Source: Candidatus Methylomirabilis limnetica (lineage in GTDB: Bacteria; Methylomirabilota; Methylomirabilia; Methylomirabilales; Methylomirabilaceae). Taken from it: a DNA stretch of 32,000 bases. Below, one piece after another: positions 4,010-28,478 of this stretch. The stretch covers positions 60,001-92,000 of the forward strand of contig NZ_NVQC01000020.1 in the NCBI RefSeq assembly GCF_003044035.1, read 5' to 3'. Both the position numbers and the translations under genes were made by a program. The notes below the pieces were generated by a model that saw only the letters and a program-made list of their open reading frames with translations, made no database searches and was not told where the DNA came from. Numbering within the stretch: the stretch's first letter is position 1; every line of letters starts with the position of its first letter.

Positions 4010-4016
4010 TTACCGA

Positions 4017-5066
4017 TTACGGCTCCACCCAGATCCGGCCTTCCGGATCCTCGATGATTTCGCCAATGAGGGCAAAGGCCGGCGTTTGACGCTCCCGTAA
4101 GCGCTCAATCAGGGCCGAAGTTCTGTCTTTCGGTACCGCGATCAGGAGGCCACCGGAGGTCTGGGCATCGCATAAGATAAGCTGGGCCTCTTGCCGAATC
4201 TCTGGATCCCAGACAATGGCTCCTTGCAGCGATTCATGGTTCCGTCGCGTGCCGCCAGGGCAGATTCCCTCTTGGACCAGTTCCCACGTCCCGGAAAGAA
4301 CGGGAACCTTTGAGAGCGACACCCGCGCTCCCACCTTGCTACCTGCTGTCATTTCGTGCAGGTGACCCAGCAGCCCGAAGCCTGTGACGTCAGTACAGGC
4401 GTGTGCTCCTACCGACACCATGGCCTCCGAGGCGTCTTTATTCAGCGCGGCCATCATCGCTATGGCAGCATCAATCGTTGGTTGCGAGACCTTGTCGCGT
4501 TTGATTCCTGTGGTAATGATCCCGATACCGAGAGGTTTGGTCAGCACCAGATCATCCCCAATGAGGGCGGTCGAATTCTTAAAGATCTTTGCAGGATCGA
4601 TCAGCCCGGTGACGACGAGGCCATACTTTGGCTCCGGGTCATCGGTGCTGTGCCCTCCGATAATTGAGGCGCCAGCCTCGCAAACCTTATCGGCTCCGCC
4701 ACGAAGGATCTCCCCCAGGACGCTCAGCGGCAGCGTTCCCACCGGAAAACCGACGATGTTGAGAGCGAATAGTGGAGTAGCGCCCATGGCATAGATGTCG
4801 CTCAGAGAGTTGGCGGCAGCGATCAGACCGCAGCTATAGGGGTCGTCCACTACGGGTGTGATGTAGTCTACGGTCTGGACGATCGCCTGTCCACTGTCCA
4901 GTCGGTAGACAGCGGCATCATCGGAGGTATCCGTCCCCACAAGGATGTTAGGGTCGTTAAATCGTGGAAGTTGGCCCAGCACCTGGGCCAGATCAGCAGG
5001 GCTGATCTTACACGCTCAGCCAGCCCCATGCGACAAGGACGTTAGCCGAATCCGTTGATCACTCAT
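4017..5066 (-). CDS. selD: Selenide,water dikinase (selenophosphate synthetase) with an in-frame TGA read as selenocysteine at residue 17
   Basis: The ORF-track segment 4017..4982 begins at an internal GTG. Extending the same frame upstream gives MSDQRIRLTSLSHGAG-TGA-ACKISPADLAQVLGQLPRF..., matching the SelD N-terminal glycine-rich loop (E. coli SHGAGCGCKI). The TGA is at 5016-5018 (plus-strand tca). An AAGGAG Shine-Dalgarno lies 7 nt before ATG 5066. An in-frame ATG at 5069 is an alternative start. The body carries AIR-synthase-like SelD motifs (DDAAVY, DPYxxGxIAAANxLSDIYAMG). Confidence 0.85.
4990..5008 (-). promoter_or_regulatory. Hairpin just downstream of the selD UGA (candidate SECIS element)
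   Basis: On the mRNA: UGA-GCGUGUA-AGAUCAGC-CCU-GCUGAUCU. This is a perfect 8-bp stem with a 3-nt loop starting 7 nt after the UGA. The loop lacks the GU of the E. coli fdhF SECIS, so the assignment is tentative. Confidence 0.4.
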
Positions 5067-5085
5067 CATTGATCTCCTTAAGGTG

Positions 5086-5697
5086 CTACTGGAAGGTTTC
5101 CGGCCCGCAGGACGGATGGTCCTTTTTGCCTCTCGATCTTCTCGCATGCTGAACTCGCGCGCTCCGCATGAGACGCTGGACCGCTGCGGCGCCAAGAAGT
5201 CCGATCAGGACTCCCCAGAACGCTCCGCCCAGCACATCGAACGGATAATGCGAGCCAACATAGATCCTGGAATATCCAACCAGAGCTGCTAAAGGGAAAC
5301 AGAGCAACCCTGATCGTGAGTAATTATAGGAGAGAAACGTAGCCAAGGCAAACATGTTGCTGGCATGGTTTGAAGGAAAGGAGAACGAAACGAGATGCGT
5401 GGCATCCCTGAGAGGATGAAATGGCCTGGTCCGTTGGAACAGATCCTTGAGGATGTGGCTGGTTCCATCGGTGAGTAGAATGACAGCGATGGCGGAAACG
5501 ACTATGATGCGATCTCGTTTTGGACGGAAGATCAATACGTAAATAAGCAGAACGGCCACCGGGATGGCGAAGTTCCATTTATTGCTGACGAACGGCATCA
5601 GGAGATCGAAGATCTGGTTCCGCAGGCTTCCGTTAATCAGGCGGAATCCGGCTTCATCCCACTCGCGCAGTCTCTCTAGCCACGGCATAACAGGCAT
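5086..5697 (-). CDS. PAP2-superfamily membrane phosphatase (lipid phosphate / lipid A or undecaprenyl-PP phosphatase-like)
   Basis: All three PAP2 motifs are present: KDLFQRTRP, FPSNHAS, SRIYVGSHYPFDVLGG. There are several TM segments. Confidence 0.8.
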   Translation of the reverse strand: MPVMPWLERLREWDEAGFRLINGSLRNQIFDLLMPFVSNKWNFAIPVAVLLIYVLIFRPKRDRIIVVSAIAVILLTDGTSHILKDLFQRTRPFHPLRDATHLVSFSFPSNHASNMFALATFLSYNYSRSGLLCFPLAALVGYSRIYVGSHYPFDVLGGAFWGVLIGLLGAAAVQRLMRSARVQHARRSRGKKDHPSCGPETFQ

Positions 5698-5712
5698 GGT
5701 TGGTTCCGCAGT

Positions 5713-6690
5713 TTACGGGTCCATCCGGTGCTGAGAGTGACCGACCAGAAACGCGATCCCTCCCAACCCGCTACAGAGGGCTGTGACAGCGAAAAATAAT
5801 AAGGATAGGCTAATTGCGCCAGCCGAATCCAGACCGACCTTGGAGAAGAAGTAGACGGAGCTTCCCTCGCGGAGACCTATGCCAGCGATGGAAACTGGCA
5901 GCATCGAGATGACGTTGATCAACGGGACGAACAGGAAGAAATAGCGAACATCGACGGACAGATTCAGAGCGCGTGAGGTCAGGTAGAAGATCATGATTAC
6001 CAGCGACTGGAGAATCAGTGAGAGACCAACTGCCTGTAACAGGGCCTGCCGGTGAGTCCAGTATCGCCGGATCGATTCGTGCAGCTGCTCCAGCCTCTCG
6101 TGGAACCGGCCTAGCCCCACCCCATTCAGCACCCTAAAGAACAGCGTCTGGAGTCGAACGCTCAGCAAGCCTGCGACGATCCCGATGACCCCCGTGGCCG
6201 CCATGACCACCAACCATACGACGACGGGGTCGTTCAAATAGGTGTAGGCTGGGATCATGGCGATGCAGGCGATGATAGCAAGGGCGACAAAGCCGGAGAG
6301 CCGCTCGACGAGAATAGAGGCCAGTGAGGCTTTGTCTCGCCGGGTCATCTGGAAGACCCGATAGCCGCGGATCACATCGCCGCCGATAGAGGTGGGGAGC
6401 ATCAGATTGAAGAACATTCCCTCGAAGTACAGTAGAGTCAGCCGCCAGAATGGAATGTTGATTTTTTCTGCCAGCAACAGGCATCTCCAGCGAACAACAC
6501 TGAGCATCTGGGCAAGGATGTAGAGAAAGATGGAGGCGAAAAAGATGGGAAAGCGCAGGGAACGGAAGAGCGTCCCAATGGCGTGTAGATCGGTTCTGGC
6601 CAAGAGGAAAGACAGCAGCGCCAGGCTACCGGCGAGTTTTAGCCAAAACTGCCAGGACTTGGCTGCGGATCTATTGATCGGATTCAGCAT
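5713..6690 (-). CDS. Flippase-like / lysylphosphatidylglycerol-synthase-TM-domain (UPF0104) membrane protein
   Basis: Polytopic membrane protein with the family-typical PTSIGGDVIRGY segment. The ATG at 6690 overlaps the upstream GT2 gene by 20 nt. Confidence 0.6.
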   Translation of the reverse strand: MLNPINRSAAKSWQFWLKLAGSLALLSFLLARTDLHAIGTLFRSLRFPIFFASIFLYILAQMLSVVRWRCLLLAEKINIPFWRLTLLYFEGMFFNLMLPTSIGGDVIRGYRVFQMTRRDKASLASILVERLSGFVALAIIACIAMIPAYTYLNDPVVVWLVVMAATGVIGIVAGLLSVRLQTLFFRVLNGVGLGRFHERLEQLHESIRRYWTHRQALLQAVGLSLILQSLVIMIFYLTSRALNLSVDVRYFFLFVPLINVISMLPVSIAGIGLREGSSVYFFSKVGLDSAGAISLSLLFFAVTALCSGLGGIAFLVGHSQHRMDP

Positions 6691-13890: not shown

Positions 13891-14340
13891 ATGAAGGTGT
13901 CCGCGAAGGGCGACTACGCTACACGAGCCATGCAAGATCTGGCTCTCCATTATGAGAAAGGGCCGATTCAGATAGAGGATATCGCCCGACGACAACACCT
14001 GCCGGCCCGTTACCTGGAACAGATCCTGTTAAGCCTCAAGCGAGCCGGCTTTCTCGAAAGCAAGCGGGGAGTCAGCGGGGGCTACTACCTGGCAAAGCAC
14101 CCCAGAGAGATTACGGTCGGAGCCATCATCAGGACCATGGAGGGCCCGATCATCCCTATCTTCTGTGTTGGGAGTGGGCCGCGAGAGATCTGCATTGAGG
14201 AGCCTCGCTGCGGCCTCCGGGATCTCTGGGCTGACGTGCGCGATGCCGTGGTGAAGATTGTGGACCACACCACGCTTGAAGACCTCAGCCGACAGATCCG
14301 TACGAGACAGGAGCGAGAGGGAGTAAGCTACCAGATCTAA
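13891..14340 (+). CDS. Rrf2-family transcriptional regulator (IscR/CymR-like) with three Cys in the cluster-ligand region
   Basis: The N-terminal wHTH MKVSAKGDYATRAMQDLA...IARRQHLPARYLEQILLSLKRAGFLESKRGVSGGYYLAK is classic Rrf2. It also has C-x9-C-x5-C (FCVGSGPREICIEEPRC). Confidence 0.85.
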   Translation: MKVSAKGDYATRAMQDLALHYEKGPIQIEDIARRQHLPARYLEQILLSLKRAGFLESKRGVSGGYYLAKHPREITVGAIIRTMEGPIIPIFCVGSGPREICIEEPRCGLRDLWADVRDAVVKIVDHTTLEDLSRQIRTRQEREGVSYQI

Positions 14341-14373: not shown

Positions 14374-15288
14374 ATGCCACGGTTGGCTCGAAATGTCCTG
14401 GAGTTGATAGGCGACACCCCGCTGGTCCAGTTACAGCGAATACCGCGCCCTGGATCGGCCCGAATTCTTGGAAAGCTGGAGTCGCTCAATCCGGGCGGAA
14501 GCGTGAAGGACCGAATCGCCTTGGCCATGATCGAGGCGGCCGAGCGGAGCGGGAGGCTGAAGCCGGGTGACACGATTGTCGAGCCGACCTCCGGCAATAC
14601 CGGGATCGGACTTGCGATGGTGGCGGCGGTCAAGGGGTACCGCCTGATCCTGACGATGCCGGAGGATATGAGTACGGAGCGGCGGAGGTTAGTCGGTCGG
14701 TACGGGGCCGAGGTGATACTCACCCCTGCCATCGAGGGAATGAGCGGCGCAGTCTATGCGGCAGAAACTCTCGTGGCGCAAAATCCTGGTTACTTCATGC
14801 CGCAACAGTTTGTGAATCCGGCCAACCCGGAGGCTCACCGCCTTACCACCGCGCAAGAAATTCTCAAGGCAACGGACGGGCAAATTGACGCTTTCGTGGC
14901 AGGCGTCGGGACTGGCGGGACGATTACCGGGGTGGGTGAGGTGCTGAAAAGGGAAGTCCCTGGCGTTCAGGTGGTCGCGGTGGAACCGGCCAGATCCCCC
15001 GTGTTACAGGGAGGCAGGGCTAGGCCGCATGGCATCCAGGGAATTGGCGCGAGCTTTGTCCCCGGCGTGCTGAACATGGAGGTAATTGATGAGATTATCG
15101 CCGTTGAGGACGAGGATGCCTATCGAATGGCCTCTCGCCTGGCCAGAGAGGAAGGCCTCCTGGTAGGGATCTCGGCCGGGGCCAATGTCTTTGCATCGAT
15201 AGTGGTCGCCGAACGGCTGCAAGCTGGGAAGGTTGTGGTGACGATCCTACCCGACACAGGAGAGCGGTACCTGTCGGTCTCATTCTGA
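14374..15288 (+). CDS. cysK: Cysteine synthase A (O-acetylserine sulfhydrylase), PLP-dependent
   Basis: [22 protein letters not shown] (PLP Lys), [12 protein letters not shown] and [10 protein letters not shown] are present. Confidence 0.85.
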
Positions 15289-15307: not shown

Positions 15308-16456
15308 ATGGATGGCTATCGTGGTGAGAATACCTCTCAGGGGATGACATCACCGGAAGGTGACCGTAGTGTGGCGATCCGTGTCTGCATCCCGACCCCG
15401 TATCGAAGACTGACGCAGAATCAGCCCGTCGTCGAGGGGCATGGGGACAATCTGGTAGAGCTTCTAGAGGATCTGGAGAGGCGTTTTCCAGGTATTCGCG
15501 AACATGTCTTCGATGGAGTTGGAGAGGTCCACCGTCATGTCAATGTCTATGTCAATAACGTGGCTGTGGAGGAGCTTGGAGGGAGGCGGACCGCGCTTAA
15601 GAACGGGGACGAGGTGATCTTGATCCCGGCTATGGCTGGGGGGAGCGCTCCGTTCAGTGAAGAGCAGATTCGTCGCTACAGTCGCCACATCATCCTCCCT
15701 GAGGTAGGCGGTAAAGGGCAGCGCAAGCTTCTGAACAGCTCGGCCCTGCTCGTCGGGGCGGGTGGTCTGGGTTCCCCTGCGGCTCTCTACCTGGCCGCTG
15801 CCGGCGTCGGTCGCCTCGGCATCATCGACGCCGACATTGTGGACCTGAGTAACCTGCAACGCCAGATCCTCCACCACGTGGATGATGTGGGACGACCAAA
15901 GGTTGTCTCTGCGGTCGAGTCGATTGCTCAGATCAATCCGGACGTAAAGGTAGAGCCGTTTCAAACGATCATCTCCTCGGCGAACGCGAAAGAGGTCATC
16001 AGTCAGTATGACCTGGTGGTGAATGGTTGCGACAATTTTCCGACCCGATACCTGGTCAACGACGCCTGTGTACTGCTGAAGAAACCACTCGTAGATGGGA
16101 GTATCTTCAAGTTCGAAGGCCAGGTGACGGTCTTCGCTCCAGGGCAGGGCTGCTATCGCTGTCTCTACCCTGCACCGCCGCCACCAGGGCTGGTCCCAAG
16201 TTGCCAGGAGGCCGGCGTACTGGGTGTACTCTGCGGTATTATTGGGAGTCTCCAGGCGATCGAGGCGATTAAGTTGCTGATCGGGATCGGCGATTCTCTG
16301 GCCGGGAGGCTTCTTTTCTTCGATTCGCTGGGGATGGAGTTTCGGCAGGTCAAGGTGCGACGCGATCTGAACTGTCCGGTCTGTGGTGATCATCCCACCA
16401 TTACCGATCTGATCGATTACTACGAGTTTTGTGGAGTTCCCGGCGGTGGTCACTGA
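15308..16456 (+). CDS. Fusion of a MoaD/ThiS-like ubiquitin-fold sulfur carrier (ending AMAGG) to a MoeB/ThiF-type E1 adenylyltransferase
   Basis: The N-terminal ~90 aa (IRVCIPTPYRRLT...VYVNN...NGDEVILIPAMAGG) is a clear paralog of the free-standing carrier at 28533..28811. Four residues later the E1 begins: EEQIRRYSRHIILPEVGGKGQRKL, VGAGGLGSPAALYLAAAGVG, DxVDLSNLQRQ, with Zn CxxC pairs GCYRC and NCPVC. There is no C-terminal rhodanese domain. Alternative starts are ATG 15344 and GTG 15371 (MAIRVCIPTP, preceded by GGAAGGTGA). Confidence 0.8.
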   Translation: MDGYRGENTSQGMTSPEGDRSVAIRVCIPTPYRRLTQNQPVVEGHGDNLVELLEDLERRFPGIREHVFDGVGEVHRHVNVYVNNVAVEELGGRRTALKNGDEVILIPAMAGGSAPFSEEQIRRYSRHIILPEVGGKGQRKLLNSSALLVGAGGLGSPAALYLAAAGVGRLGIIDADIVDLSNLQRQILHHVDDVGRPKVVSAVESIAQINPDVKVEPFQTIISSANAKEVISQYDLVVNGCDNFPTRYLVNDACVLLKKPLVDGSIFKFEGQVTVFAPGQGCYRCLYPAPPPPGLVPSCQEAGVLGVLCGIIGSLQAIEAIKLLIGIGDSLAGRLLFFDSLGMEFRQVKVRRDLNCPVCGDHPTITDLIDYYEFCGVPGGGH

Positions 16457-16475
16457 GACCGCGAACGGCGCAGCC

Positions 16476-17492
16476 ATGATCCGAATGATGGGCCTGGGTC
16501 TCGTTGTCGGGGCAGCCTTCGGGTACGCCCTGCAGCGTGGGCGCTTTTGCATGAACTCTACGTTCCGCGATATCCTGCTGGCGCGGGATCTCACCCTGCT
16601 ACGGGCCTACATCCTGGCTCTTTTGATTCAGATGGTCGGGGTCAGGGCGATGGCGACGTTGGGTCTGTTCGGGCTGGGCGTCACACCATTTTTTTGGGTA
16701 GCGACGTTGTGCGGCGGGTTCGTGTTCGGTATCGGAATGGCCTTTTCCGGTGGGTGAGGGAGCGGCAGTACTTACCGGTCCGGTGAGGGGATGGTGGGTT
16801 CGATTATTGCGCTGCTCGGTTTTGTATTTGGGATCACGATGACCAATGACGGCGTTTTAGAGCCGGTGCAAGTCGTCTTGCGGAGCTCCGTGGTTGAGAT
16901 CGATGGGCAGCCCGCAACGCTGGATCGCCTCTTGGGCGTGAATCCATGGATACTGGTAGTAACCTTCGTCATAGTTGGCGGTTGGTGGCTTCTGAAAAGC
17001 CCGGCCGGCGGCTACCAGAGAGGGTGGAGTTGGACAAGGAGCGGCATCACCATCGGTCTGATAGCCACGGCTGCCTGGCCGATCTCAGCCCTGACCGGAA
17101 GGGAGTACGGTCTTTCGATCACCGAGCCGATCCGAACGATCTCGGGGTTCCTGTTCACCGGTGAGACCTCCCTGCTCACCTGGGGGAGTTTCATGTGGGT
17201 GGGGCTCATTGCGGGCGCATACGTGGCGGCGAGGTCACATGGAGAGTTTGCCTGGCGCGCCCCTGGCGCTCAGCGTCTTCTCCAGGCTCTCGGGGGTGGT
17301 CTGCTGATGGGCGTGGGGGCCGGCATTGCGGGTGGATGCAACATCGGTCATGGGCTGACTGGAGTTCCACTCTTTGGACTGAGCAGTGTGACGGCGACAC
17401 TCGGTATTATCCTGGGAGTATGGGTCGGAGTCTATCTGTTGTTTGGTAGCATTGCGTTTGAGCGTGGGCCGCGAAACGCCCAGCGGGCGTAG
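16476..17492 (+). CDS. YeeE/YedE-family sulfur (thiosulfate/selenium) transporter, interrupted by an in-frame TGA (16755-16757) at a conserved Cys; candidate selenoprotein, or else split or pseudogenised
   Basis: ORFs 16431..16757 and 16791..17492 share a frame, and only the TGA lies between them. Read-through gives ...GIGMAFSGG-U-GSGSTYRSGEGMVGSIIALLGF..., paralleling the second-half motif GIAGGCNIGHGLTG. The first family Cys is at RGRFCMN. The total is 338 codons, typical for the family. ATG 16476 follows the E1 stop codon. Confidence 0.65.
16771..16787 (+). promoter_or_regulatory. Hairpin 13 nt downstream of the YeeE UGA with a GGUCC apical loop (candidate bacterial SECIS)
   Basis: CUUACC (16771-16776), GGUCC loop, GGUGAG (16782-16787). 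That gives six pairs, one of them a G-U wobble. Loop sequence and distance from the UGA resemble the E. coli fdhF SECIS apical loop (GGUC), recalled from memory. Confidence 0.4.
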
Positions 17493-17536
17493 AGTCTTCC
17501 GAACGTGGTGGCGATCGTAAAATCATGGGGGCAGCG

Positions 17537-17791
17537 ATGACGAAGTACTCCCTTGATGTGACTGGAGAGATTTGTCCGTATCCTTTGATGTTGACCAAAC
17601 AGAAAATGGGGAAACTTACAGCCGGTGATCAACTAGTGGTAATTGTCGATTACGCGAAATCGGTAGAAGATATCCCCAGATGGGCGAAGGAGGAAGGTTA
17701 TGCGGTCCTCGCCATTTCGGAAGTTGGTAGAACTCAATGGGAAATCGTCCTGGAAAAAGTCTCACCTGCATTATTGGAGGAGGGGAAATGA
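17537..17791 (+). CDS. TusA/SirA/YeeD-like sulfurtransferase
   Basis: SLDVTGEICPYPLMLTKQKM contains the CPxP active-site motif in an ~80-aa protein. ATG 17525 is an alternative start. Confidence 0.8.
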   Translation: MTKYSLDVTGEICPYPLMLTKQKMGKLTAGDQLVVIVDYAKSVEDIPRWAKEEGYAVLAISEVGRTQWEIVLEKVSPALLEEGK

Positions 17792-18033
17792 GTGGGGCGC
17801 CTGAGCAGATAGCCGAGTCCCTTGATCTGAAGGGGGAGGTATGCCCCTACACGTTTGTGAAGACCAAATTGGCGCTGGAAGAGCTACAAAGCGGTCAGGC
17901 GCTGATAATCATAGTGGATAACCCTAGTTCTGCTGAGAACGTTCCCAGGAGTTTACGCAGTGAAGGGCATATAGTTGCGGATGCGACGAAGTTGAATGAC
18001 ACTGACTGGGCGATCACGGTAATAAAGGCCTGA
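17788..18033 (+). CDS. TusA/SirA/YeeD-like sulfurtransferase, second paralog
   Basis: SLDLKGEVCPYTFVKTKLALEEL has the CPY motif. ATG 17788 overlaps the upstream TGA (ATGA) and follows GGAGGAGGGG. The ORF-track start at 17737 is an out-of-frame overlap with the first gene. Confidence 0.8.
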   Translation: MSGAPEQIAESLDLKGEVCPYTFVKTKLALEELQSGQALIIIVDNPSSAENVPRSLRSEGHIVADATKLNDTDWAITVIKA

Positions 18034-18085: not shown

Positions 18086-19021
18086 ATGAAAAAAGTCGAT
18101 ATTCTTGATGCGATCGGGCACACGCCGCTGATCGAACTGTCGCGGATGAGTCCCAAGAAAGAGGTTCGGATCTTCGCCAAGCTGGAGGGAGTGAACCCGA
18201 CCGGCAGCTTGAAGGATCGAATAGCGAAGTACATGATCGAGCAGGCCGAGCGGAGCGGCGAACTGACGAAGGGCCAAACGATTCTGGAGCCAACGAGCGG
18301 CAACACCGGTATCGCCTTGGCCATGATCGGGCGGAGGAAGGGGTACAAGGTCAAGGCGGTGATCCCGGAAAACGCTACCCCGGAGAGACGTCAACTCCTT
18401 GAGATCTTCGGCGCCGAGTTGATCTATTCTGATGGGACCAAAGGGAGTAATGGGGCTATTGAGTTGGCTCAAGAGCTTGTGGCGCAGGATCCAACCCTCT
18501 ACATGCCCTTTCAGTACGGTAATCCGGCCAACCCTCTGGCCCACTACGAAACGACCGGGGTGGAGATCCTGAACGACCTCCCGGAGGTTGATGTCTTTGT
18601 GGCCGGCCTTGGGACCGGCGGAACCCTGATGGGCGTGGGGAGACGGCTGAAGGAGCGTAACCCCAAGACCAAGGTCATTGCCGTGGAGCCGAATCCGGGC
18701 GATCTGGTCCAGGGGCTTCGCAGTCTTGATGAGGGTTTCATTCCACCGATCCTTGACACCAGCCTCTTGGACGGCAAAATAATGGTCGATTCTCGCTGTG
18801 CCTTTGCCGCTACCAAAGATCTGACCAACAAGGAAGGGATCTTTGCCGGCGTGTCCTCTGGGGCTGTCGTTCATGTGGCGATCCGGACGGCGCATCGAAT
18901 GGAGAAGGGCAACATCGTGGTAATCCTCTGCGATGGCGGGTGGAAGTATGTGAGCCTGGGTGTCTGGCATAAGGAGTTTCCCGCGCTGGGCGAGAACATG
19001 TACAGTCACCTCTGGTGGTAG
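18086..19021 (+). CDS. cysM: Cysteine synthase B-type PLP enzyme (CysM-like)
   Basis: [32 protein letters not shown] and GLGTGGTLMG are present. It lies next to a JAMM peptidase, as in the mycobacterial cysO-cysM-mec arrangement. Confidence 0.8.
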   Translation: MKKVDILDAIGHTPLIELSRMSPKKEVRIFAKLEGVNPTGSLKDRIAKYMIEQAERSGELTKGQTILEPTSGNTGIALAMIGRRKGYKVKAVIPENATPERRQLLEIFGAELIYSDGTKGSNGAIELAQELVAQDPTLYMPFQYGNPANPLAHYETTGVEILNDLPEVDVFVAGLGTGGTLMGVGRRLKERNPKTKVIAVEPNPGDLVQGLRSLDEGFIPPILDTSLLDGKIMVDSRCAFAATKDLTNKEGIFAGVSSGAVVHVAIRTAHRMEKGNIVVILCDGGWKYVSLGVWHKEFPALGENMYSHLWW

Positions 19022-19046
19022 GCCTGTGGTGAGCCCTGTCGAACCG

Positions 19047-19511
19047 ATGATCCATACGCAACCGGGGCTGAACGAAATCTTCGCTCACGCCGAGGAGGCA
19101 TATCCTGAAGAGGCCTGCGGGGTCGTCATAGGGAAGCCAGGCGATCCGAGTACGAATATTATCCGCAGATGCGCGAATCTGGCGAACCAGTATCAGCAGG
19201 ACGATCCAATTCGTTATCCGAGAGATGCAAGGACCGCCTATATCATGGACCCAAAGGACCTTCTACGGATTCAGAGCGAAGCTGATGCCAAAGGTCTTGA
19301 GTTTGTCGTTATCTACCATTCACACCCAGATCATGAAGCCTACTTCTCTGAGACCGATCGAGACTTGGCGTTGTTCGACGGTGAACCGTTGTGGCCGCAG
19401 ATGCACTATCTTGTCGTGTCAGTGAAAAATGGGAAAGTGTTGTACTTCAAAGCATTCAGGTGGGACGCGATCAAAAAAGAGTTTGCAGAAGAACCATCTG
19501 CTGTCTTTTAG
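19047..19511 (+). CDS. JAMM/MPN+ metallopeptidase (Mec+/HcyD/QbsD-like)
   Basis: Has the catalytic Glu context EEACGVVIG and a complete JAMM motif, HSHPDHEAYFSETD (HxH-x7-S-xx-D). GTG 19026 is an alternative start. Confidence 0.8.
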   Translation: MIHTQPGLNEIFAHAEEAYPEEACGVVIGKPGDPSTNIIRRCANLANQYQQDDPIRYPRDARTAYIMDPKDLLRIQSEADAKGLEFVVIYHSHPDHEAYFSETDRDLALFDGEPLWPQMHYLVVSVKNGKVLYFKAFRWDAIKKEFAEEPSAVF

Positions 19512-19602
19512 CTCAACGACTAGCTTCTCTTTCAGGGTTGCGTGGAGTAGTGAGAAGTGATGTGCAAAGCCTCCGAGGCCGAGATGGATGACCGTGCGAT
19601 GA

Positions 19603-20559
19603 ATGGAAGTAATGGGCATGATGGACCTTGATACCGGGCAAATCACGCTCATAGCTATCACGCTCTTTGCGGCCGCCGTCAATGGGGCGCTAGGGTATGG
19701 GTTTTCATCGCTGACCGTCCCGGTTGCCCTCATCTTCTATTCTAACAGGATCCTGAATCCCGCCTTGGTATTGGTGGAGGTGGCCCTTAATAGCTACGTG
19801 CTGCTCGTCAATCGCAGTAGCATCCGGAAGATCTGGAAGAGGGTGCTACCGATCGTATTTGGCCTTATTCCTGGTGTCATCGCGGGGAGTTATTTCCTCT
19901 CGATGGCGAACCCGGGATGGCTTAAGCTGATCACGTATCTCATCGTGCTGCCGTTGATCCTGCTGCAGGCGGCAGGGGTCAGGCGGCCGATTCGGTCCGA
20001 ACATCTCATTGGTGTCCCGTTCGGCGCCGGAGTTGGCGTTCTCTATTCAACAACCACCATCTCTGGTCCTCCTTTGGCGCTCCTGTTTAACAACCAGGGC
20101 TTTGTCAAAGGCGAGTTTAGAGCCGCCCTTGGTCTGATCAGAATGGTCGAATCAACCGTGACAGCGACCGCGTATTACTTTCTAGGAGTGTATACTGCAG
20201 AGAGTACGGGGCTCCTGTCGTCGATCGTTCCGAGCGTCGCGATCGGGATTCCGATAGGGGCCTACATCATCAGACGCATGAATGCTGAAACGTTCAGAAG
20301 AATCTGTATGAGCTTCGATGCCTGGGTGGTGGGCTTTGGATTATCGAAGGTATTTATCGAGCTGGGATTGATCGCAAGCCCGCGTGCCTACGGTGTCTGG
20401 CTGGCTGTTATCATGATCGATCTCTTTTTACTCTACGGCTTCTTTACGAGGGGGCCGGAGATCTCGGCGGCCGCCTTGGCTGTCGATGCCCCTGATGGGG
20501 GTTCCAGGCTCATGCATCAAAAAACGCCGACCATAACCCAGGACGATCTGCCTGCATGA
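19603..20559 (+). CDS. TauE/SafE (TSUP, DUF81) family anion permease
   Basis: Polytopic membrane protein with the family N-terminus AAAVNGALGYGFSSLTVP and an internal repeat GAGVGVLYSTTTISGPP. Confidence 0.7.
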   Translation: MEVMGMMDLDTGQITLIAITLFAAAVNGALGYGFSSLTVPVALIFYSNRILNPALVLVEVALNSYVLLVNRSSIRKIWKRVLPIVFGLIPGVIAGSYFLSMANPGWLKLITYLIVLPLILLQAAGVRRPIRSEHLIGVPFGAGVGVLYSTTTISGPPLALLFNNQGFVKGEFRAALGLIRMVESTVTATAYYFLGVYTAESTGLLSSIVPSVAIGIPIGAYIIRRMNAETFRRICMSFDAWVVGFGLSKVFIELGLIASPRAYGVWLAVIMIDLFLLYGFFTRGPEISAAALAVDAPDGGSRLMHQKTPTITQDDLPA

Positions 20560-20589
20560 GTGTATCGCCCGGTAGCGAGCGAGCGGTGA

Positions 20590-22359
20590 ATGATGGGGAG
20601 GGCAATAATGAATGATGCGGGCGAAAACAGGCCGTCCTGGGCTAGTGAGGAGGAGATCGATACCTTCGATCAGTTCGTCCAAAGGTTCTGGAATGGGGAG
20701 ATCTCACCAGACGAGTTCAAGCGGTTCCGCCTGCAGAACGGGGTCTACGGACAGCGGCAGGAAGGGGAACAGATGCTCCGGATCAAGATCCCGTGGGGCG
20801 GTCTCAGCTCGGATCAACTGGAGCTGCTCGCCGAGCTGGCGGCGAAGGCTCCGAAGGGGGTAGGTCACGTGACTACCCGCCAGAACATCCAGTTCCACTT
20901 CATCAAACTCGACCAGGTGACAGGACTGACGAGGAGCCTGGCCTCAATCGGGCTGACGACCAGAGAGGCCTGCGGAAACACCGTTCGCACCGTTACGGTC
21001 GGGCACTGCGCCGGGGTCTGCCCTCAAGAAGTGTTCGACGTTACCCCGTATGCCGCTACGATTACGCGATTTCTCCTGCGCAATCCGATGAATCAGAACC
21101 TGCCCAGGAAGTTTAAAATCGCGTTCTCCGGCTGTCCCGACGACCTTGGTCTCACCCCTATCCAGGACATCGGTGCCCGTGCTGCGCTCCGATTGACAGC
21201 AGGAAAGGAGGAGCGGGGCTTTCAGCTTTATGTCGGGGGCGGCCTAGGCCCCACGCCACACCTCGCGGAGTTGCTCGAGGAGTTTACGCCGGCGAATCGG
21301 CTCCTGCCGACAGTGGCCGCTATTGTGCGCGTATTCGACCGCCTCGGTAATCGTGACGATCGACACAAGGCCAGAATGAAGTTCCTGTTGAACAAGCTGG
21401 GGATCGAGCAGTTTCGATTACTGGTGTTCCAGGAGCGGACCGGACTCGAATCAACAATGGCCGGACAGTTTCCCCCTCTTGTCAGTTGGGAGGAGATCCC
21501 GCCTCATCGTGCATCACCTGTTTCGGCGGGTCCCATCAAAGAGTCGGACGATCCTGCCTACCGGGGGTGGCGGACCACCAATGTGCTGAAGCAGAAGCAG
21601 GCCGGATACCTGATGGTTCATGTTCGCCTCGAACTCGGAGACGTCACCTCAGTACAGCTTAGAAGCCTTGCCTTCGCGGCGCGTGAGTTCGGCGATGGCA
21701 CAGTCCGCAGCACGAACCAGCAGAACTTCGCCCTCAGGTGGATTCCCTCTGAGCGCCTCCCTGCGCTCTATCGGTTGCTCCACGCTGTCGGCTTGGCTGC
21801 CCCGTCGGCTGAACGGTTGGCAGATATTACCGCTTGTCCAGGCGCTGATACCTGCCAGCTCGGAATCACCTCCTCTCGCGGCTTGGCGGCTGCCCTGGGA
21901 GCCCTCTTCGATGATGAACTGAGGGATCTGGCGGATGAGGCGGGGATTCGGATGAAGATTTCTGCCTGCCCAAACTCTTGTGGCCAGCACCACCTTGCGA
22001 ATATCGGGTTTTATGGCGGCGCCAAAAAGTTCAACGGCCGGCAGGTGCCGACCTACGAGATGTTGCTGGGTGCGAGTTTGGCGCCGGGCCAGGCGCAATA
22101 TGGCAAGCCGGTGGCACGGATCCCGGCAAAGAATATCCCGGGTGCGGTGGAGGCGGTCCTCCGTCTGTATCAGAAAGAGCGACAGGATGGCGAATCGTTC
22201 AACGGCTTTCTGGATCGCTATGGGTTGGAGACCGTGAAGATAGTCCTGGCGCCCTTTACAGACCTGCTGCCGGTCTCTGAGGCGCCGGATCACTATCTTG
22301 ACTATAACGCTGAAGAGGCGTTTTCCGTCCAGACCGGGCCTGGCGAGTGCGCTGCGTAA
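20590..22359 (+). CDS. Assimilatory sulfite reductase hemoprotein (ferredoxin-type nitrite/sulfite reductase, siroheme-[4Fe-4S])
   Basis: TTRQNIQFH is present. The cluster/siroheme Cys motifs are CPGADTC and CPNSCGQHHLANIGF. The half-domain is duplicated. Confidence 0.85.
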   Translation: MMGRAIMNDAGENRPSWASEEEIDTFDQFVQRFWNGEISPDEFKRFRLQNGVYGQRQEGEQMLRIKIPWGGLSSDQLELLAELAAKAPKGVGHVTTRQNIQFHFIKLDQVTGLTRSLASIGLTTREACGNTVRTVTVGHCAGVCPQEVFDVTPYAATITRFLLRNPMNQNLPRKFKIAFSGCPDDLGLTPIQDIGARAALRLTAGKEERGFQLYVGGGLGPTPHLAELLEEFTPANRLLPTVAAIVRVFDRLGNRDDRHKARMKFLLNKLGIEQFRLLVFQERTGLESTMAGQFPPLVSWEEIPPHRASPVSAGPIKESDDPAYRGWRTTNVLKQKQAGYLMVHVRLELGDVTSVQLRSLAFAAREFGDGTVRSTNQQNFALRWIPSERLPALYRLLHAVGLAAPSAERLADITACPGADTCQLGITSSRGLAAALGALFDDELRDLADEAGIRMKISACPNSCGQHHLANIGFYGGAKKFNGRQVPTYEMLLGASLAPGQAQYGKPVARIPAKNIPGAVEAVLRLYQKERQDGESFNGFLDRYGLETVKIVLAPFTDLLPVSEAPDHYLDYNAEEAFSVQTGPGECAA

Positions 22360-22427
22360 TCATCGGATCAAGAGAGTGCCGTAGTCGGCTGGGAAGGTCG
22401 GTATGAACAACAATGAGAGGAGAGGGA

Positions 22428-23408
22428 ATGGGGAGACGGGTCGTTAAGCTGGCGCCATGGATAACCGGGCTAGCCTTGGTAGTAGGAGTCACGTGGATCG
22501 GCCAGGCCCACGCATACGAAGCATGGGTGACGAATCAGGAAGACCATACCGTCACCGTGATCGATACCGAGACTAATACGGTCCTCGACACGATCACGCC
22601 GGGCGGCAAGAAGCCCCATAACGTCGCCTTTTCACCGGACGGCGCCCATGCCTTTGTCGCGAATGTGGCGTCCAACGACGTGAACATGATCGAGACAAAA
22701 ACGAGAAAGGTGATCGCGACATTTCCCGCCGGGATCAGGGCGCATGGCCTTGCCGTTGCCCCCGATGGTAAGCAGCTCTGGGTGGCGAACCCGGGATCAA
22801 ACGATGTGACAGTCATTGATCTTCAACTCCGGCAAACGATCGACACGATCCCAGTCGGGAAAGCCCCCGCGCTCGTAGTCTTTGATCCGAAAGGCGCGAG
22901 AGCCTTTGTCAGCAACGGGGGATCCGGGGACCTTTCTGTGATCGATGCGAAGAGCCGGAAGATCATTACCACCATCGAGGCAGGCAAGGGCGCCATGGGG
23001 ACAGATATCACATGGGACGGAAAGCTTCTGCTGGTTACAGCGGGGGATGTCGATCGAATCGACGTGATCGATGCGATTAGTCACCAGGTCAAGGCGAGGA
23101 TCCCGCGAGAGGGCGAACCGCATGGCCTTGTGCTGTCGCCTGACGGGAAGCGAGCATACGTTGGGAGCCGCAAGGCGAATGTGGTGTCGATTGTCGATTG
23201 CAAGCAGTTGAAGATTATAAAAGATATTCCAGCAGGCAAGCGGATCGACATCATCACGATTACGCCGGATGGCCGTCGCCTCTACGTGACCAGCCGTGAC
23301 ACCAATACCGTGATCGCCATCGATACGCTAACAGAGAAGGTTGTCGCTGAGATTCCGGTAGGAAAAGACCCTCACGGGATCGCTGTACTTCCTGCGAGCC
23401 ATCACTAA
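22428..23408 (+). CDS. Secreted YVTN-type beta-propeller repeat protein (cytochrome-d1/lactonase-like fold)
   Basis: Signal peptide MGRRVVKLAPWITGLALVVGVTWIGQAHA. Repeats run V-T-V-I-D-...-P-H-G-x-A-x-S-P-D-G-...-Y-V-x-N. GGAG lies 6 nt before ATG 22428, and ATG 22413 is an alternative start. Unlike 2755..3906, it has no C-terminal sorting signal. Confidence 0.75.
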   Translation: MGRRVVKLAPWITGLALVVGVTWIGQAHAYEAWVTNQEDHTVTVIDTETNTVLDTITPGGKKPHNVAFSPDGAHAFVANVASNDVNMIETKTRKVIATFPAGIRAHGLAVAPDGKQLWVANPGSNDVTVIDLQLRQTIDTIPVGKAPALVVFDPKGARAFVSNGGSGDLSVIDAKSRKIITTIEAGKGAMGTDITWDGKLLLVTAGDVDRIDVIDAISHQVKARIPREGEPHGLVLSPDGKRAYVGSRKANVVSIVDCKQLKIIKDIPAGKRIDIITITPDGRRLYVTSRDTNTVIAIDTLTEKVVAEIPVGKDPHGIAVLPASHH

Positions 23409-23428
23409 GATTACTAAGATACAGATAA

Positions 23429-23492
23429 CCCCCCCCAACCCCCCCTTTGTAAGGGGGGGGAGAGAGAAGGGGGGGTAAGAGGGGAACTGGGG
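23429..23492. repeat. C-run/G-run imperfect hairpin followed by four G-tracts
   Basis: C8-AA-C7-TTTGTAA-G8-AGAGAGAA-G7-TAAGA-G4-AACT-G4. It shares the CCCCC-TTT..AA-GGGGG core with the hairpins inside the element at 2473-2630. Confidence 0.85.
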
Positions 23493-23577
23493 ACTTTCGA
23501 AGTAATGGCATGGTCGCAGCCTCGCGTGTAGCTGCGCGAATTATTTCACGTGCGTTGACATATTCCAATAAGGAGGA

Positions 23578-24339
23578 ATGATGGAAAGACAATCGGGAAT
23601 TCAGAGCGCAGAGAGCATTATTGAACTGAACGAGCGGTTCCGGGGGGCCGGGCCGGAGGTGGTGCTTCGGTGGGCGATCGACACCTTCGCTCCCAAGCTG
23701 GCGCTCGCCAGCAGTTTTGGGGCTGAAGATATGGTTTTAATCGATATGCTGTCGAAGCTCGAGCCGGCGACCACGATTTTCACCCTGGACACAGGTCGGT
23801 TGCATGAGGAGACGTACGACATAATGGAGCGGACCCGAGAACGGTACAAGGTTGCGATTGAGAGCTACTTCCCGGGGCGAGACGCCGTAGAGGCGCTAGA
23901 GCGCGAGCGCGGGTTTTATTCCTTCCGGCAGAGTATCGAGGAACGGAAGTTCTGCTGTCGCGTCCGAAAGGTGGAGCCGCTCGGTCGAGCGCTGCTAAAC
24001 GTTGATGCGTGGATCACCGGGCTCCGGCGGGAGCAGGCAGCGACCCGCACCGGCATCGACGCTGTTGAGATTGATGCGAGCCATGGCTCAATCGTTAAGA
24101 TCAATCCGCTCGTCGATTGGACCGAGTCGCAGGTCTGGGCGTATATCCGCGAGCACGATGTGCCCAGCAACGCTCTTCATGACCAGGGCTTTCCCAGCAT
24201 CGGCTGCGCGCCATGCACGAGGGCTATCAAGCCGGGCGAGGATGTACGAGCTGGACGATGGTGGTGGGAAAACCCGGAGACCAAGGAGTGCGGGCTGCAT
24301 CTGGAGAGCGGACACGGCGATCATGGCGCACGCGGCTAA
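23578..24339 (+). CDS. cysH: Assimilatory APS reductase ([4Fe-4S]-type CysH)
   Basis: SFGAEDMVLIDM and the catalytic ECGLH are present. The Fe-S Cys pairs FCCRVRK and GCAPC are typical of APS-specific rather than PAPS-specific enzymes. The start is ATG 23578 or 23581, after AGGAGG. Confidence 0.85.
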   Translation: MMERQSGIQSAESIIELNERFRGAGPEVVLRWAIDTFAPKLALASSFGAEDMVLIDMLSKLEPATTIFTLDTGRLHEETYDIMERTRERYKVAIESYFPGRDAVEALERERGFYSFRQSIEERKFCCRVRKVEPLGRALLNVDAWITGLRREQAATRTGIDAVEIDASHGSIVKINPLVDWTESQVWAYIREHDVPSNALHDQGFPSIGCAPCTRAIKPGEDVRAGRWWWENPETKECGLHLESGHGDHGARG

Positions 24340-24352
24340 GGCGAGGGGTACG

Positions 24353-25567
24353 ATGTCGACAGGAGAGCACACGATGCAGAAATCGATTGAATCGCCGGAG
24401 ACAGAGGCGCCGACACAGATCCTCCCTCACGGTGGGCGGCTCGTCTCTCGGATACTTACAGGAGAGGCCAGGGCCGACGCGATAGGTAGGGCGCAGGATC
24501 TCCCCGCGATTTCCTTGAACGCGAGGGCCGTGTCCGACGTGGAATGCCTGGCCACTGGCGTCTTTAGCCCGCTCGAAGGGTTTATGGATCGGGGTGACTA
24601 CGAGGGGGTGGTCAATGAGATGCGCATGAAGAACGGCATACTGTGGACGCTTCCGATCACCCTGGCCGCGCCCAAAGAGGAAGCGGCCGGGCTACGGGAG
24701 GGGGGAGAGGCGGCCTTGCTGGACTCGGACGGTGAGCTGCTTGGCCTCCTCTCAGTGCAGGAGATCTTCCCCTACGACAAGCGCGCGGAGGCGTGCCTGG
24801 TATACGCTACAGAAGAGACGCGCCACCCTGGCGTGCAGTACCTGTACCAGCGGGGAGAGCTCTTGGTGGGCGGGTCGATCAGCATGGTTCGCCCCCCGTC
24901 GTTACCGGGATTCGAAGACTATTACTGCGTGCCGGCTGAGACGCGGCGACGGTTCAAGGAGCGTGGATGGCAGACCGTAGTCGGGTTTCAGACCCGCAAC
25001 CCGATTCATCGGTCGCACGAGTACATCCAGAAATGCGCGTTAGAGTTGATGGACGGCCTGCTGATCCACCCGCTGGTCGGTCGGACAAAGCTCGACGATG
25101 TCCCATCAGAAATCCGTCTTCGATGCTATCGCGCGCTTGAGGAGTGCTACTTCCCGAAGGAGCGCGTCATGCTGAGCGTCTTCCCTGGCGCTATGCGATA
25201 TGCGGGGCCGCGCGAGGCGGTCTTCCATGCCCTCGTGCGCAAGAACTATGGATGTACCCACTTCATCGTTGGGCGGGACCCCGCAGGGGTAGGCGGCTTC
25301 TATCATCCATACGCCGCCCGTGACCTCTTCCTGCGGCTGTCACGCGACGAATTGGACATCACCCCGCTCTTCTTCGATGAGGCCTTCTTCTGCCGTCGCT
25401 GCGATGGGATGGCCTCGTCCAAGACCTGCCCACATGAGGCGTCCGAGCGGGTGACGCTGAGTGGCACGCGCGTTCGTGAACTCCTTCGGAGCGGTGAGGC
25501 GCTACCAGAAGAATTTACGCGGCCGGAGGTCTCCGAGATCCTGGCGGAATGGATGCAGGGTGAATAA
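24353..25567 (+). CDS. sat: Sulfate adenylyltransferase (ATP sulfurylase)
   Basis: FQTRNPIHRSHEY and HFIVGRDPAGVG are present. ATG 24353 follows the cysH stop and a GAGGGG Shine-Dalgarno. The ORF-track start at 24002 lies inside cysH in another frame. Confidence 0.85.
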   Translation: MSTGEHTMQKSIESPETEAPTQILPHGGRLVSRILTGEARADAIGRAQDLPAISLNARAVSDVECLATGVFSPLEGFMDRGDYEGVVNEMRMKNGILWTLPITLAAPKEEAAGLREGGEAALLDSDGELLGLLSVQEIFPYDKRAEACLVYATEETRHPGVQYLYQRGELLVGGSISMVRPPSLPGFEDYYCVPAETRRRFKERGWQTVVGFQTRNPIHRSHEYIQKCALELMDGLLIHPLVGRTKLDDVPSEIRLRCYRALEECYFPKERVMLSVFPGAMRYAGPREAVFHALVRKNYGCTHFIVGRDPAGVGGFYHPYAARDLFLRLSRDELDITPLFFDEAFFCRRCDGMASSKTCPHEASERVTLSGTRVRELLRSGEALPEEFTRPEVSEILAEWMQGE

Positions 25568-26230
25568 TCAGTTCTTTGGCGGCTTCGGTAGGCGGATGGT
25601 GGGGTAGTTGGCTGTCAACCAGTGGCCAATTCCCCCCGGGACATTGCCGGCCCTTGGGAAGCCGTGGTGAAGCAGGATGCTGGCCGCCGTGCTGCTGCGC
25701 ACACCTTCTTCGCAGATCAGGACGATGTGTCGACGGCGATCGAGTCCGTAAGTCTGCTGCCAGATTTCTGCAAGCGAGATGAGCAGCGAGCCTTTGATAT
25801 AGCCCAGCTCCCACTCGAACGGCTCCCGCACGTCGATCAGTATCAGTTCATCGTCCGGAGCGTTCAGGCGTTGCCAGAGATCCGAGACAGACACTTGTGA
25901 CAGTTGGACCAGCGGCAATCCTGCGTGGTCCCACGCCTCGGCGCCTCCAGTGACGATTCCCTGGAGAGGATTTCGATCCACCCACTGGAGCGCATCAGCC
26001 GCGGCCTCAGCAACACCCTCCTCGCCGGAGAGGAGTATGATCGGGGGACCGGGTGGGATCGCGGTCGCGACGCGCTCAGAGAGGCTTTTACGACTGAAGA
26101 CGATGTTGATACTGCCCGGAATATGGCGTGACGCGAACTCCTTGTGCGGGCGCAGATCGATCAGCAGCACGCCTTCGTCTAATGCGCTCTTTGCCTGATG
26201 TGGCGTCAACGTCGGTATCTCGCTTGGCAT
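25568..26230 (-). CDS. Tandem rhodanese-domain sulfurtransferase
   Basis: Two rhodanese folds. The C-terminal one has the active-site loop CEEGVRS. The N-terminal one has Ser at that position (LSGEEG). The start is uncertain: ATG 26230 or TTG 26329. Confidence 0.7.
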   Translation of the reverse strand: MPSEIPTLTPHQAKSALDEGVLLIDLRPHKEFASRHIPGSINIVFSRKSLSERVATAIPPGPPIILLSGEEGVAEAAADALQWVDRNPLQGIVTGGAEAWDHAGLPLVQLSQVSVSDLWQRLNAPDDELILIDVREPFEWELGYIKGSLLISLAEIWQQTYGLDRRRHIVLICEEGVRSSTAASILLHHGFPRAGNVPGGIGHWLTANYPTIRLPKPPKN

Positions 26231-26396
26231 CGCGCTCACGCTGGTTGAGGGAAGATTACTTTGCACATTGTGCCTTACCTCCGTGTGGAGCTTCTCCTGT
26301 GTGGAGTATACCCTGACTACGCTTGTCAATGCTATTAGGGCACACCGGCTGTTTCGTGACCGAGTAGAGGGATCCCTCTGAGGGGTGTCTTGGAGC

Positions 26397-27215: not shown

Positions 27216-28478
27216 ATGGCGCAGGTGAAAGGATTGAAGTGCAGGGAGTGCGGCAGACCATATCCCGCTGAGCCTCTGCATGTCTGTGAGTTCTGTTTCG
27301 GGCCTCTTGAGGTCGATTACGATTACGACGCACTCCGCGGTACGCTGACCAGAAAAGCGATCGAGGCTGGACCGCCCAGCATCTGGCGATACAAGGCGCT
27401 GCTGCCGATCGAGGGAGAGCCCGTGGTCGGGAAACATTGCGGGATGACGCCCCTCGTGAGGGCCAAGAACCTGGCGCGCGCGTTAGGCATGCGGGAGGTC
27501 TATGTCAAAAACGATACCGTGAGCCATCCCACCTTTTCATTTAAGGATCGGGTGGTGGCGGTAGCGGTGACTAAGGCCGTGGAGTTTGGCTTCAAGGTGG
27601 TGGCCTGTGCCTCTACCGGCAACCTGGCAAACTCGGTGGCGGCCCACGCCGCCGAAGGGGGGCTTCGAAGCTTCGTCTTTGTGCCGTCCGACCTGGAGCA
27701 GGGCAAGGTGCTGGGCACCCTGATCTACAACCCAAAGCTGGTGGCCGTGGACGGCAACTACGATGAGGTCAACCGTCTGTGCAGCGAGATTGCCGATAAA
27801 TATGGATGGGCCTTTGTGAACATTAATATCCGGCCTTACTACGCTGAGGGCTCCAAAACCTTTGGGTACGAGATCGCAGAGCAACTTGGCTGGCGTGCGC
27901 CCCAGCACATCGTTGTGCCGGCCGCGGGGGGTTCGCTGGTCACGAAGATCTTGAAGGGGCTTAAGGAGTTCGATCGACTCGGCCTCCTGAATGGCGGCTG
28001 CGCTACGCGGATGCACGTGGCCCAGGCGGAAGGGTGTGGCCCCATTGTGACCGCTATCAAGGCGAACAGCGAGATCATTAAACCGGTCAAGCCAAAGACA
28101 ATCGCCAAGTCGCTCGCCATCGGGAACCCGGCGGACGGCTACTACGCCTACAAGGTCGTCAAGGAGAGTGGTGGCCACGGGGAACATGCCACAGATGAGG
28201 AGATTGTGGAGGGTATGAAGCTGTTGGCCAGCACTGAAGGGATCTTTTCCGAGACCGCCGGCGGGGTGACGATAGCGGCGGCCAAACGGCTGATCGAGCA
28301 GGGGCGAATCCCCAGGGACGAAAGCCTGGTCCTCTGTATCACCGGCAACGGGCTGAAGACCCAGGAGGCAGTCGCCTCATCACTGAAGGTTCGGCTGCAC
28401 ATCAAACCGACCCTTCGAGCGTTTGATGAAGCGATGGTCTCTCATGGAATCGACGTCACGTCGAGAACAATGGACTAA
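27216..28478 (+). CDS. Threonine-synthase-family PLP enzyme with an N-terminal Zn ribbon (ThrC or MetM-like homocysteine synthase)
   Basis: CRECGRPYPAEPLHVCEFCFGPLEV is the Zn ribbon. HPTFSFKDR holds the PLP Lys, and ASTGNLANS is present. It lies directly upstream of a MoaD-like carrier. Confidence 0.8.
   Translation: MAQVKGLKCRECGRPYPAEPLHVCEFCFGPLEVDYDYDALRGTLTRKAIEAGPPSIWRYKALLPIEGEPVVGKHCGMTPLVRAKNLARALGMREVYVKNDTVSHPTFSFKDRVVAVAVTKAVEFGFKVVACASTGNLANSVAAHAAEGGLRSFVFVPSDLEQGKVLGTLIYNPKLVAVDGNYDEVNRLCSEIADKYGWAFVNINIRPYYAEGSKTFGYEIAEQLGWRAPQHIVVPAAGGSLVTKILKGLKEFDRLGLLNGGCATRMHVAQAEGCGPIVTAIKANSEIIKPVKPKTIAKSLAIGNPADGYYAYKVVKESGGHGEHATDEEIVEGMKLLASTEGIFSETAGGVTIAAAKRLIEQGRIPRDESLVLCITGNGLKTQEAVASSLKVRLHIKPTLRAFDEAMVSHGIDVTSRTMD

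Follow-up and report, generated by a model that had tools for sequence, protein, structure and literature searches.

The closest described relatives of the gene considered here are the YeeE (TsuA) proteins. In the Spirochaeta thermophila protein C22, C91 and C293 line the pore, and the C91A and C293A variants are inactive; in the crystal, thiosulfate is hydrogen bonded to C293 and C91 is found in a partial disulfide with C22 (Tanaka 2020, PMC7449682). C91 is the essential 'second cysteine' of the relay proposed for this protein (PMC7449682), and C17 of YeeD acts as a 'fourth cysteine' (Ikei 2024, PMC11073785). In the YeeE/TsuA structural papers (PMC7449682, PMC11073785) C91 is seen as a residue that guides thiosulfate by hydrogen bonding, and the string 'selen' occurs 0 times in each of them. 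In the selenoprotein literature Zhang et al. (Biomolecules 2022, PMC9312934) include YeeE/YedE (PF04143, motif GUxSG, example WP_012471001.1) among the predicted selenoprotein families, and a 2026 AEM review (PMC13188914) does so too. Table S3 of Peng et al. (2016) gives 5 YeeE/YedE selenoprotein sequences in 5 organisms; the family is absent from the main texts of GOS 2008 and Peng 2016, and is present only in that supplementary table of the latter. Here we have analyzed a yeeE/tsuA-like gene of the methane oxidiser Candidatus Methylomirabilis limnetica, situated in a stretch of 32,000 nucleotides of contig NZ_NVQC01000020.1 (positions 60,001 to 92,000; the window in what follows), in which the codon at the position of the second cysteine is an in-frame TGA. 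Our reading, to which we give a probability of roughly 85%, is that selenocysteine (Sec) is inserted at this codon, codon 94, under the direction of a hairpin at 16771-16787.

The gene is seen in the window as two open reading frames (ORFs), 16431..16757 and 16791..17492, which lie in one frame and are separated by the TGA (16755-16757) and the 33 nt (11 sense codons) that follow it. Read through from the ATG at 16476, they form 338 codons with a single internal stop, in the context GMAFSGG-[TGA]-GSGSTYR. An earlier note on this DNA had described the two fragments and their read-through, and its coordinates are all correct. A GTG at 16431 is an alternative start; the 338-codon orthologs begin at a Met homologous to ATG 16476. 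The GenBank and JGI gene calls cut the gene into a piece of 93-111 aa and a piece of 233 aa. The GenBank entry PTL36015.1 ('hypothetical protein CLG94_06885 [Candidatus Methylomirabilis limnetica]') has exactly the sequence of the C-terminal fragment, so that yeeE has been deposited there as a split gene. The best explanation of the two fragments is a single gene for a YeeE/TsuA-type thiosulfate uptake protein.

For profile scoring a Cys was put in place of the TGA; the read-through protein then matches all 310 positions of the Pfam PF04143 (Sulf_transp) profile, with 265.5 bits (E 1e-78, cutoff 27). Its match to S. thermophila YeeE (PDB 6LEO) has an E-value of 1e-49, with residues 5-106 aligned without gaps to residues 2-103 of the chain. 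The residue equivalences are U94 to C91, C25 (in RGRF-C-MN) to C22, and C288 (in the second-half motif GIAGG-C-NIGHG) to C293; all three pore cysteine positions of PF04143 proteins are accounted for by C25, C288 and the TGA in the C91 column. The TGA therefore does fall at the central conserved cysteine of the family, as had been proposed, and the 69 residues between C25 and codon 94 do correspond to the C22/C91 pair. The earlier note had also stated that C91 contacts thiosulfate, and here it was imprecise, as the crystal ligand is hydrogen bonded to C293 (PMC7449682).

The codon-94 column was scored by tblastn after scans of GTDB species genomes and JGI metagenomes. TGA occupies the column in 31 loci from independent assemblies and Cys (TGC or TGT) in 134, which places its recurrence beyond chance; the proposed test for Cys/Sec pairs among homologs thus had a positive outcome, in close and distant relatives alike. 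The TGA set extends to lineages 58%, 56% and 50% identical to the window protein (loci L020, L022 and L110, respectively). A database search returned full-length Cys forms with 83-88% identity, together with more than 30 'proteins' of 217-236 aa. These short entries are C-terminal fragments called after a stop, and in eight contigs that carry such fragments the DNA has TGA at exactly the codon-94 column; all of the full-length homologs aligned have Cys there. Every full-length TGA-bearing ortholog has 338 codons, and all have a single internal stop except L101, where a second stop is found three codons before the end of the gene. Upstream and downstream of the TGA alike, the ratio pN/pS lies at 0.08-0.27, with pS reaching 0.5-0.75, which argues that the TGA-bearing genes are not pseudogenes. 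The 11 codons that follow the TGA are kept at the protein level in relatives. Many TGA-bearing relatives have CTG, CTC or TTG in place of the ATG at which translation might appear to restart; where this ATG is missing, gene callers begin still further downstream. The orthologs are not independently restarted halves, and the hairpin described below is conserved; the earlier note had named the opposite as an outcome that would overturn its reading.

Numbering from the U of the UGA as 1, the hairpin consists of CUUACC / GGUCC / GGUGAG, in which C17-U18-U19-A20-C21-C22 pairs with G28-G29-U30-G31-A32-G33 (6 bp) around the loop G23-G24-U25-C26-N27; the stem begins 13 nt, and the loop 19 nt, after the UGA. 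Pairing of G23 with C27 would reduce the loop to GUC and extend the stem to 7 bp. The loop of the Escherichia coli fdhF element is G22-G23-U24-C25 in the same numbering. The hairpin is as the earlier note described it, including its resemblance to the fdhF type. The published consensus for the bacterial selenocysteine insertion sequence (bSECIS; SECIS without the prefix below) calls for a loop of 3-9 nt with a G within its first two positions, a stem of 4-16 bp, a UGA-to-loop distance of 16-37 nt and a minimum free energy no higher than -7.5 kcal/mol (PMC13188914). The window hairpin agrees with all of these, with a 5-nt loop, a stem of 6-7 bp, a spacing of 19 nt and a local fold energy of -8.5 kcal/mol. 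The local fold energies of eight Sec forms range from -7.3 to -12.9 kcal/mol, one of them just above the -7.5 threshold, and those of six Cys revertants from -1.4 to -7.0 kcal/mol.

RNAalifold selects the same helix, and 97% of its cells are paired across 18 Sec sequences. Because the stem is nearly invariant and shows no covariation, support for the hairpin was drawn from synonymous sites and from the Cys revertants. In 20 distinct Sec genes, 14 of the 107 fourfold-degenerate codons have a third base that is at least 95% conserved, and half of these best-conserved sites (7/14) lie in codons 99-112, right after the UGA. ACU(99) and GGU(103) are fixed despite T being the third base least used in the gene; their U's are paired in the stem. 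The loop codon UCN(102) occurs with all four third bases, so that N27 is free. Loci L020 and L022 also form a hairpin at this site, the loop being GGUC and the stem longer and containing a bulged A, and L110 has one there with a different sequence, GCCUUCC paired with GGAAGGC. All of the distinct Cys forms (6/6) carry substitutions that weaken the stem: G or C in place of U18, C in place of U30, or G in place of C17. The hairpin is evolutionarily protected in the Sec forms and degraded in every Cys revertant.

Some sub-windows in single-sequence folding gave competing folds. A pairing of CUUACC with GGUGGG (nt 39-44) was rejected as an alternative, as L020 and L022 are unable to form it. Synonymous constraint runs as far as codon 112, well past the 6-bp hairpin, and RNAalifold pairs the UGA region with alignment nt 56-65 in a lower stem. 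A few cells of this lower stem are broken, and its changes among standard pairs are all GC-to-GU or UA-to-UG, with no compensatory change. The constraint at 16749-16814 may reflect an extended SECIS or codon bias.

A second gene in the window, selD, which encodes selenophosphate synthetase, is also interrupted by an in-frame TGA. Its product scores 401.9 bits on TIGR00476 (cutoff 125), and the position of the TGA in the catalytic site marks it as a predicted selenoprotein gene; the statement that the selD of this window itself needs UGA decoding holds on the present analysis. Two stable hairpins follow the selD UGA, AGAUCAGC-CCU-GCUGAUCU and GGCCCAG-GUG-CUGGGCC (-24.4 kcal/mol, z = -2.8). The ORF list of the window contains just the 321-aa piece of selD that follows the TGA. 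The two genes are 11 kb apart, on opposite strands, with unrelated genes between them. For the sister species Ca. M. oxyfera, Table S2 of Peng et al. (2016) lists 6 selenoprotein genes.

Several explanations that dispense with Sec must be weighed. A general change of the genetic code was rejected: TGA ends 10 of the 30 genes of the window as an ordinary stop, and yeeE and selD are the only two that it meaningfully interrupts. The split of yeeE in the GenBank and JGI calls, and the TGC or TGT found in very close relatives, might be taken as signs of a pseudogene or of a Cys codon (TGC or TGT) turned into TGA by faulty sequencing or assembly. However, the 31 TGA loci come from independent projects and assemblers (JGI, ENA, NCBI metagenome-assembled genomes, Logan), frame and length are intact, and purifying selection is strong on both halves, so that the probability left to this explanation is close to negligible. 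A truly split gene, with polypeptides of ~93 aa and ~233 aa that assemble, would have a precedent in the archaeal YedE that is split in two genes (Lin et al. 2015, PMC5322559), and the window does offer an ATG 11 codons past the TGA. Such a split would, however, remove the essential C91-equivalent residue, and the break is always exactly at the Cys column; the protein-level conservation of the 11 intervening codons and the loss of the ATG in many TGA-bearing relatives also speak against it, and we judge it very improbable. Taken together, the recurrence of the TGA, the purifying selection, the conserved intervening codons, the lost ATG and the normal use of TGA stops make pseudogene, sequencing error, true split and general code change unlikely.

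The UGA might instead be read through without selenium, by near-cognate insertion of Trp or Cys or by some other recoding, with the hairpin only stimulating read-through. The hairpin is indeed small and thermodynamically unremarkable, and selA, selB and selC are absent from the 32-kb window. Against such an explanation stand the position of the UGA at a catalytic Cys, the defining feature of Sec/Cys pairs, the agreement of the G-G-U-C loop and its spacing with the SelB-type bSECIS consensus, the Sec-type selD kept in the same genome and the prior cataloguing of the family as a selenoprotein with the GUxSG motif; read-through of this kind is accordingly improbable. The Sec reading is favoured by the Cys/Sec column, the conserved UGA, the coding selection on both sides of it, the protected hairpin, the Sec-type selD and the membership in a family with the GUxSG motif. 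Several observations weigh against it. The z-scores of the hairpin relative to shuffled sequences are only -0.1 to -1.75, unexceptional for G+C-rich sequence. Neither RNAalifold nor pair counts revealed compensatory covariation in the main clade, as the stem hardly varies; of the folding and covariation check that had been suggested, the folding half succeeded, with a local fold of -8.5 kcal/mol. In one Sec lineage (L007/L008) the stem is interrupted by a C.A mismatch. At gathering thresholds the window has no Rfam match; Rfam contains no curated family for bacterial SECIS elements. No selA, selB or tRNA-Sec lies within the 32-kb window, in which ARAGORN finds no tRNA at all. Finally, the best NCBIfam match of the window YeeE, TsuA NF052577 (residues 5-324), scores 241.3 bits and the equivalog/exception cutoff is 400, while NF041049 scores 205.8 bits with a cutoff of 645. 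The window YeeE is a relative of TsuA, below the level of a certified equivalog, and for this reason its thiosulfate specificity is drawn from homology and context.

The profiles of the selenium-linked YedE/FdhT proteins, TIGR04112 and NF033796, match residues 4-123 only, at 46.9 versus 200 bits and 101.7 versus 350 bits, respectively. Profile scores and gene context would place the gene in the thiosulfate (TsuA/YeeE) branch and not in the selenium-linked YedE/FdhT branch; the earlier suggestion of a thiosulfate/selenium channel appears sound for its first half and not for its second. The TusA-like YeeD/TsuB partner that accompanies the thiosulfate proteins is represented by two PF01206 genes directly downstream of yeeE, with CPYP and CPYT motifs, and both of these follow yeeE in relatives too. 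Thiosulfate uptake with hand-over to TusA/YeeD partners is, from homology and operon context, a moderately likely function. As yeeE lies in a predicted operon for cysteine biosynthesis and sulfate/thiosulfate assimilation, its role would be to bring in sulfur derived from thiosulfate and to hand it on.

In a neighbour-joining tree the TGC forms make up one clade nested within the Sec forms, and the deeper branches are all Sec, which suggests that Sec is ancestral in this Methylomirabilota clade. A second Cys type, with TGT and the motif GGCVSGSS (L169 = GCA_028716865.1; P0124 = WP_337289561.1; P0129), falls in the 90%-identity cluster of the window protein. Cys thus appears to have been regained from Sec at least twice, in the TGC clade and in the TGT form L169, with decay of the hairpin each time, and the L169-type revertant indicates that Sec/Cys switching in Methylomirabilis is probably recent and recurrent. 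With an ancestral Sec, two or more reversions and SECIS decay, the clade would be a clean small case of selenoprotein turnover.

Mechanistically, a putative SelB-binding hairpin inside the coding sequence (nt 17-22 paired with 28-33, loop GGUC(N) from 19 nt) would direct the decoding of the UGA. The Sec would then replace the second cysteine in the line Cys293 -> Cys91 -> Cys22 -> YeeD-Cys17 along the hourglass pore; in the window protein the line would run through C288, U94 and C25 to the Cys of one or the other of the TusA/YeeD-like pair encoded downstream. Since a deep Methylomirabilota clade keeps Sec in place of the second cysteine, and since C91 and C22 form a disulfide in the S. thermophila crystal, this residue might be a reactive nucleophile and not a passive hydrogen-bond donor, so that the protein would act by a covalent sulfur relay, as a group-translocating sulfurtransferase rather than a channel. 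We regard this idea as unlikely. In such a relay C25 would receive Se-S-SO3 or selenenylsulfide intermediates and YeeD would take them over from there, with Sec speeding the exchange step, or, in a variant, the Sec form would handle selenosulfate or other S/Se species. Sec/Cys exchange is usually seen at redox-active or nucleophilic cysteines, and the swap at the C91 column hints at reactive chemistry there. It also offers an experimental handle, through U94C and U94S changes in this protein and C91U in that of S. thermophila or E. coli.

The coordinates of yeeE, its candidate regulatory structures and the genes around it are collected in Table 1. The cluster has the composition of the operon named above, and relatives share its gene order from the Rrf2 regulator as far as TauE. 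The ORF upstream of yeeE carries a ThiS/MoaD-like carrier (residues 28-112) N-terminal to an E1 domain of the MoeB/ThiF/MoeZ type; this fusion is present in all of the relatives seen, and in the window it lies near CysK/CysM-like enzymes and a JAB/Mec+-like protease (18960-19511). The combination of fusion, JAB/Mec+ and CysK/CysM is reminiscent of a CysO-thiocarboxylate route to cysteine; for this the C-terminal Gly-Gly of the carrier would need to be released from the fusion by proteolysis.

Table 1. Features of the yeeE locus and of selD in the window (positions are those of the 32,000-nucleotide stretch)
Feature	Position	Strand	Description and basis
yeeE/tsuA-like coding sequence	16476..17492	+	338 codons plus TAG stop; Sec proposed at codon 94; PF04143 full-length, 6LEO match
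In-frame TGA, proposed Sec codon (U94)	16755..16757	+	Equivalent to S. thermophila YeeE C91 and E. coli YeeE C94
Candidate apical SECIS hairpin	16771..16787	+	Stem 16771-16776/16782-16787, loop GGUCC 16777-16781; local fold, RNAalifold, synonymous-site constraint
Wider region of synonymous constraint	16749..16814	+	Extended lower SECIS stem including the UGA proposed by RNAalifold
Rrf2/CymR-like regulator	13891-14340	+	Profile matches
cysK	14374-15288	+	Profile matches
ThiS-ThiF (sulfur carrier + E1) fusion	15308-16456	+	Profile matches
TusA-family partner, YeeD/TsuB-like	17525..17791	+	Cys-Pro-Tyr-Pro motif; PF01206, 80.3 bits; best NCBIfam match TsuB/YeeD NF041048, below cutoff
Second TusA-family paralog	17788..18033	+	Motif EVCPYTF; PF01206
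Downstream sulfur-assimilation genes	18086..25567	+	CysM-like pyridoxal phosphate (PLP) enzyme, JAB/Mec+ deSAMPylase-like, TauE exporter-family, sulfite reductase, beta-propeller, PAPS/APS reductase, ATP sulfurylase
selD (selenophosphate synthetase)	4017..5069	-	In-frame TGA 5016-5018 in LSHGAG-[TGA]-ACKISP (motif GAG-U-ACK); TIGR00476

Some further features of the neighbourhood were noted. In the more distant Sec forms L005-L008 (about 3680-5870) a rhodanese gene of ~305 aa overlaps the yeeE stop, and a YNCE-type beta-propeller gene is situated between the two TusA genes; in the window the propeller homolog (22413-23408) is found elsewhere in the cluster, as is a rhodanese gene (25568-26329, -). 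The ORFs of the PAPS/APS reductase (23578-24339) and the ATP sulfurylase (24002-25567), both on the + strand, overlap by ~340 nt. The TTG start of the sulfurylase at 24002 is probably placed too far upstream, since its Pfam domains start at residue 141. At 27216-28478 (+) the N-terminus of a PLP-dependent (PALP) enzyme matches Pfam NinF over a short stretch (residues 8-32, E 4.5e-9), an odd pairing that may reflect a small Cys-rich or zinc-ribbon-like N-terminal extension.

For annotation, our reading implies that yeeE should be a single selenoprotein gene; at present Ca. M. limnetica and dozens of Methylomirabilota assemblies give it as two fragments or as 'hypothetical protein'. What is new here is modest: the recognition of a gene that is split in GenBank, a Sec that appears ancestral to a Methylomirabilota clade, and a probable natural Sec/Cys swap at the second cysteine. 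Current knowledge is not overturned, as YeeE/YedE already has its place among the catalogued predicted selenoproteins; the earlier note, which was not aware of YeeE/YedE as an established selenoprotein family, had overlooked these listings (PMC9312934, PMC13188914; Peng et al. 2016, Table S3).

Relative to the catalogued Sec-containing YeeE proteins, the window gene belongs to the same Pfam family, and the GUxSG motif of the review table reads G-U-G-S-G in the window and G-U-A-S-G in relatives. From the family listing and this fitting motif it follows that the kind is already known, as a computational prediction. Both the catalogued proteins and the window gene have one Sec per protein, in the first-half GGC(x)SG loop, and both are computational predictions; the window gene differs in being annotated as split hypothetical proteins, and its Methylomirabilota/NC10 lineage and operon context are described from the present searches. 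With the YeeE (TsuA)-YeeD proteins of S. thermophila and E. coli (6LEO, 6LEP, 8J4C, 8K1R) it shares the fold family, the C22/C91/C293 residues, the adjacent TusA-like genes and the cysteine-biosynthesis context; unlike them, its second cysteine is proposed to be Sec, it is accompanied by two YeeD-like paralogs instead of one, and it falls below the TsuA equivalog cutoffs. The selenium-linked YedE/FdhT proteins (TIGR04112, NF033796; Lin et al. 2015, PMC5322559) resemble it in superfamily, in their SirA/TusA-like neighbours and in coming from a SelD-containing organism, but the match of the window protein to them is partial and sub-threshold, and its neighbours are sulfur-assimilation genes, not Sec-lyase or selD. 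The candidate hairpin, like SECIS elements of the E. coli fdhF type, lies within the coding sequence just 3' of the UGA and has a small apical loop that starts with G-G-U-C (G23-G24-U25-C26 in the window), whereas no bulged U is evident in its 6-bp stem.

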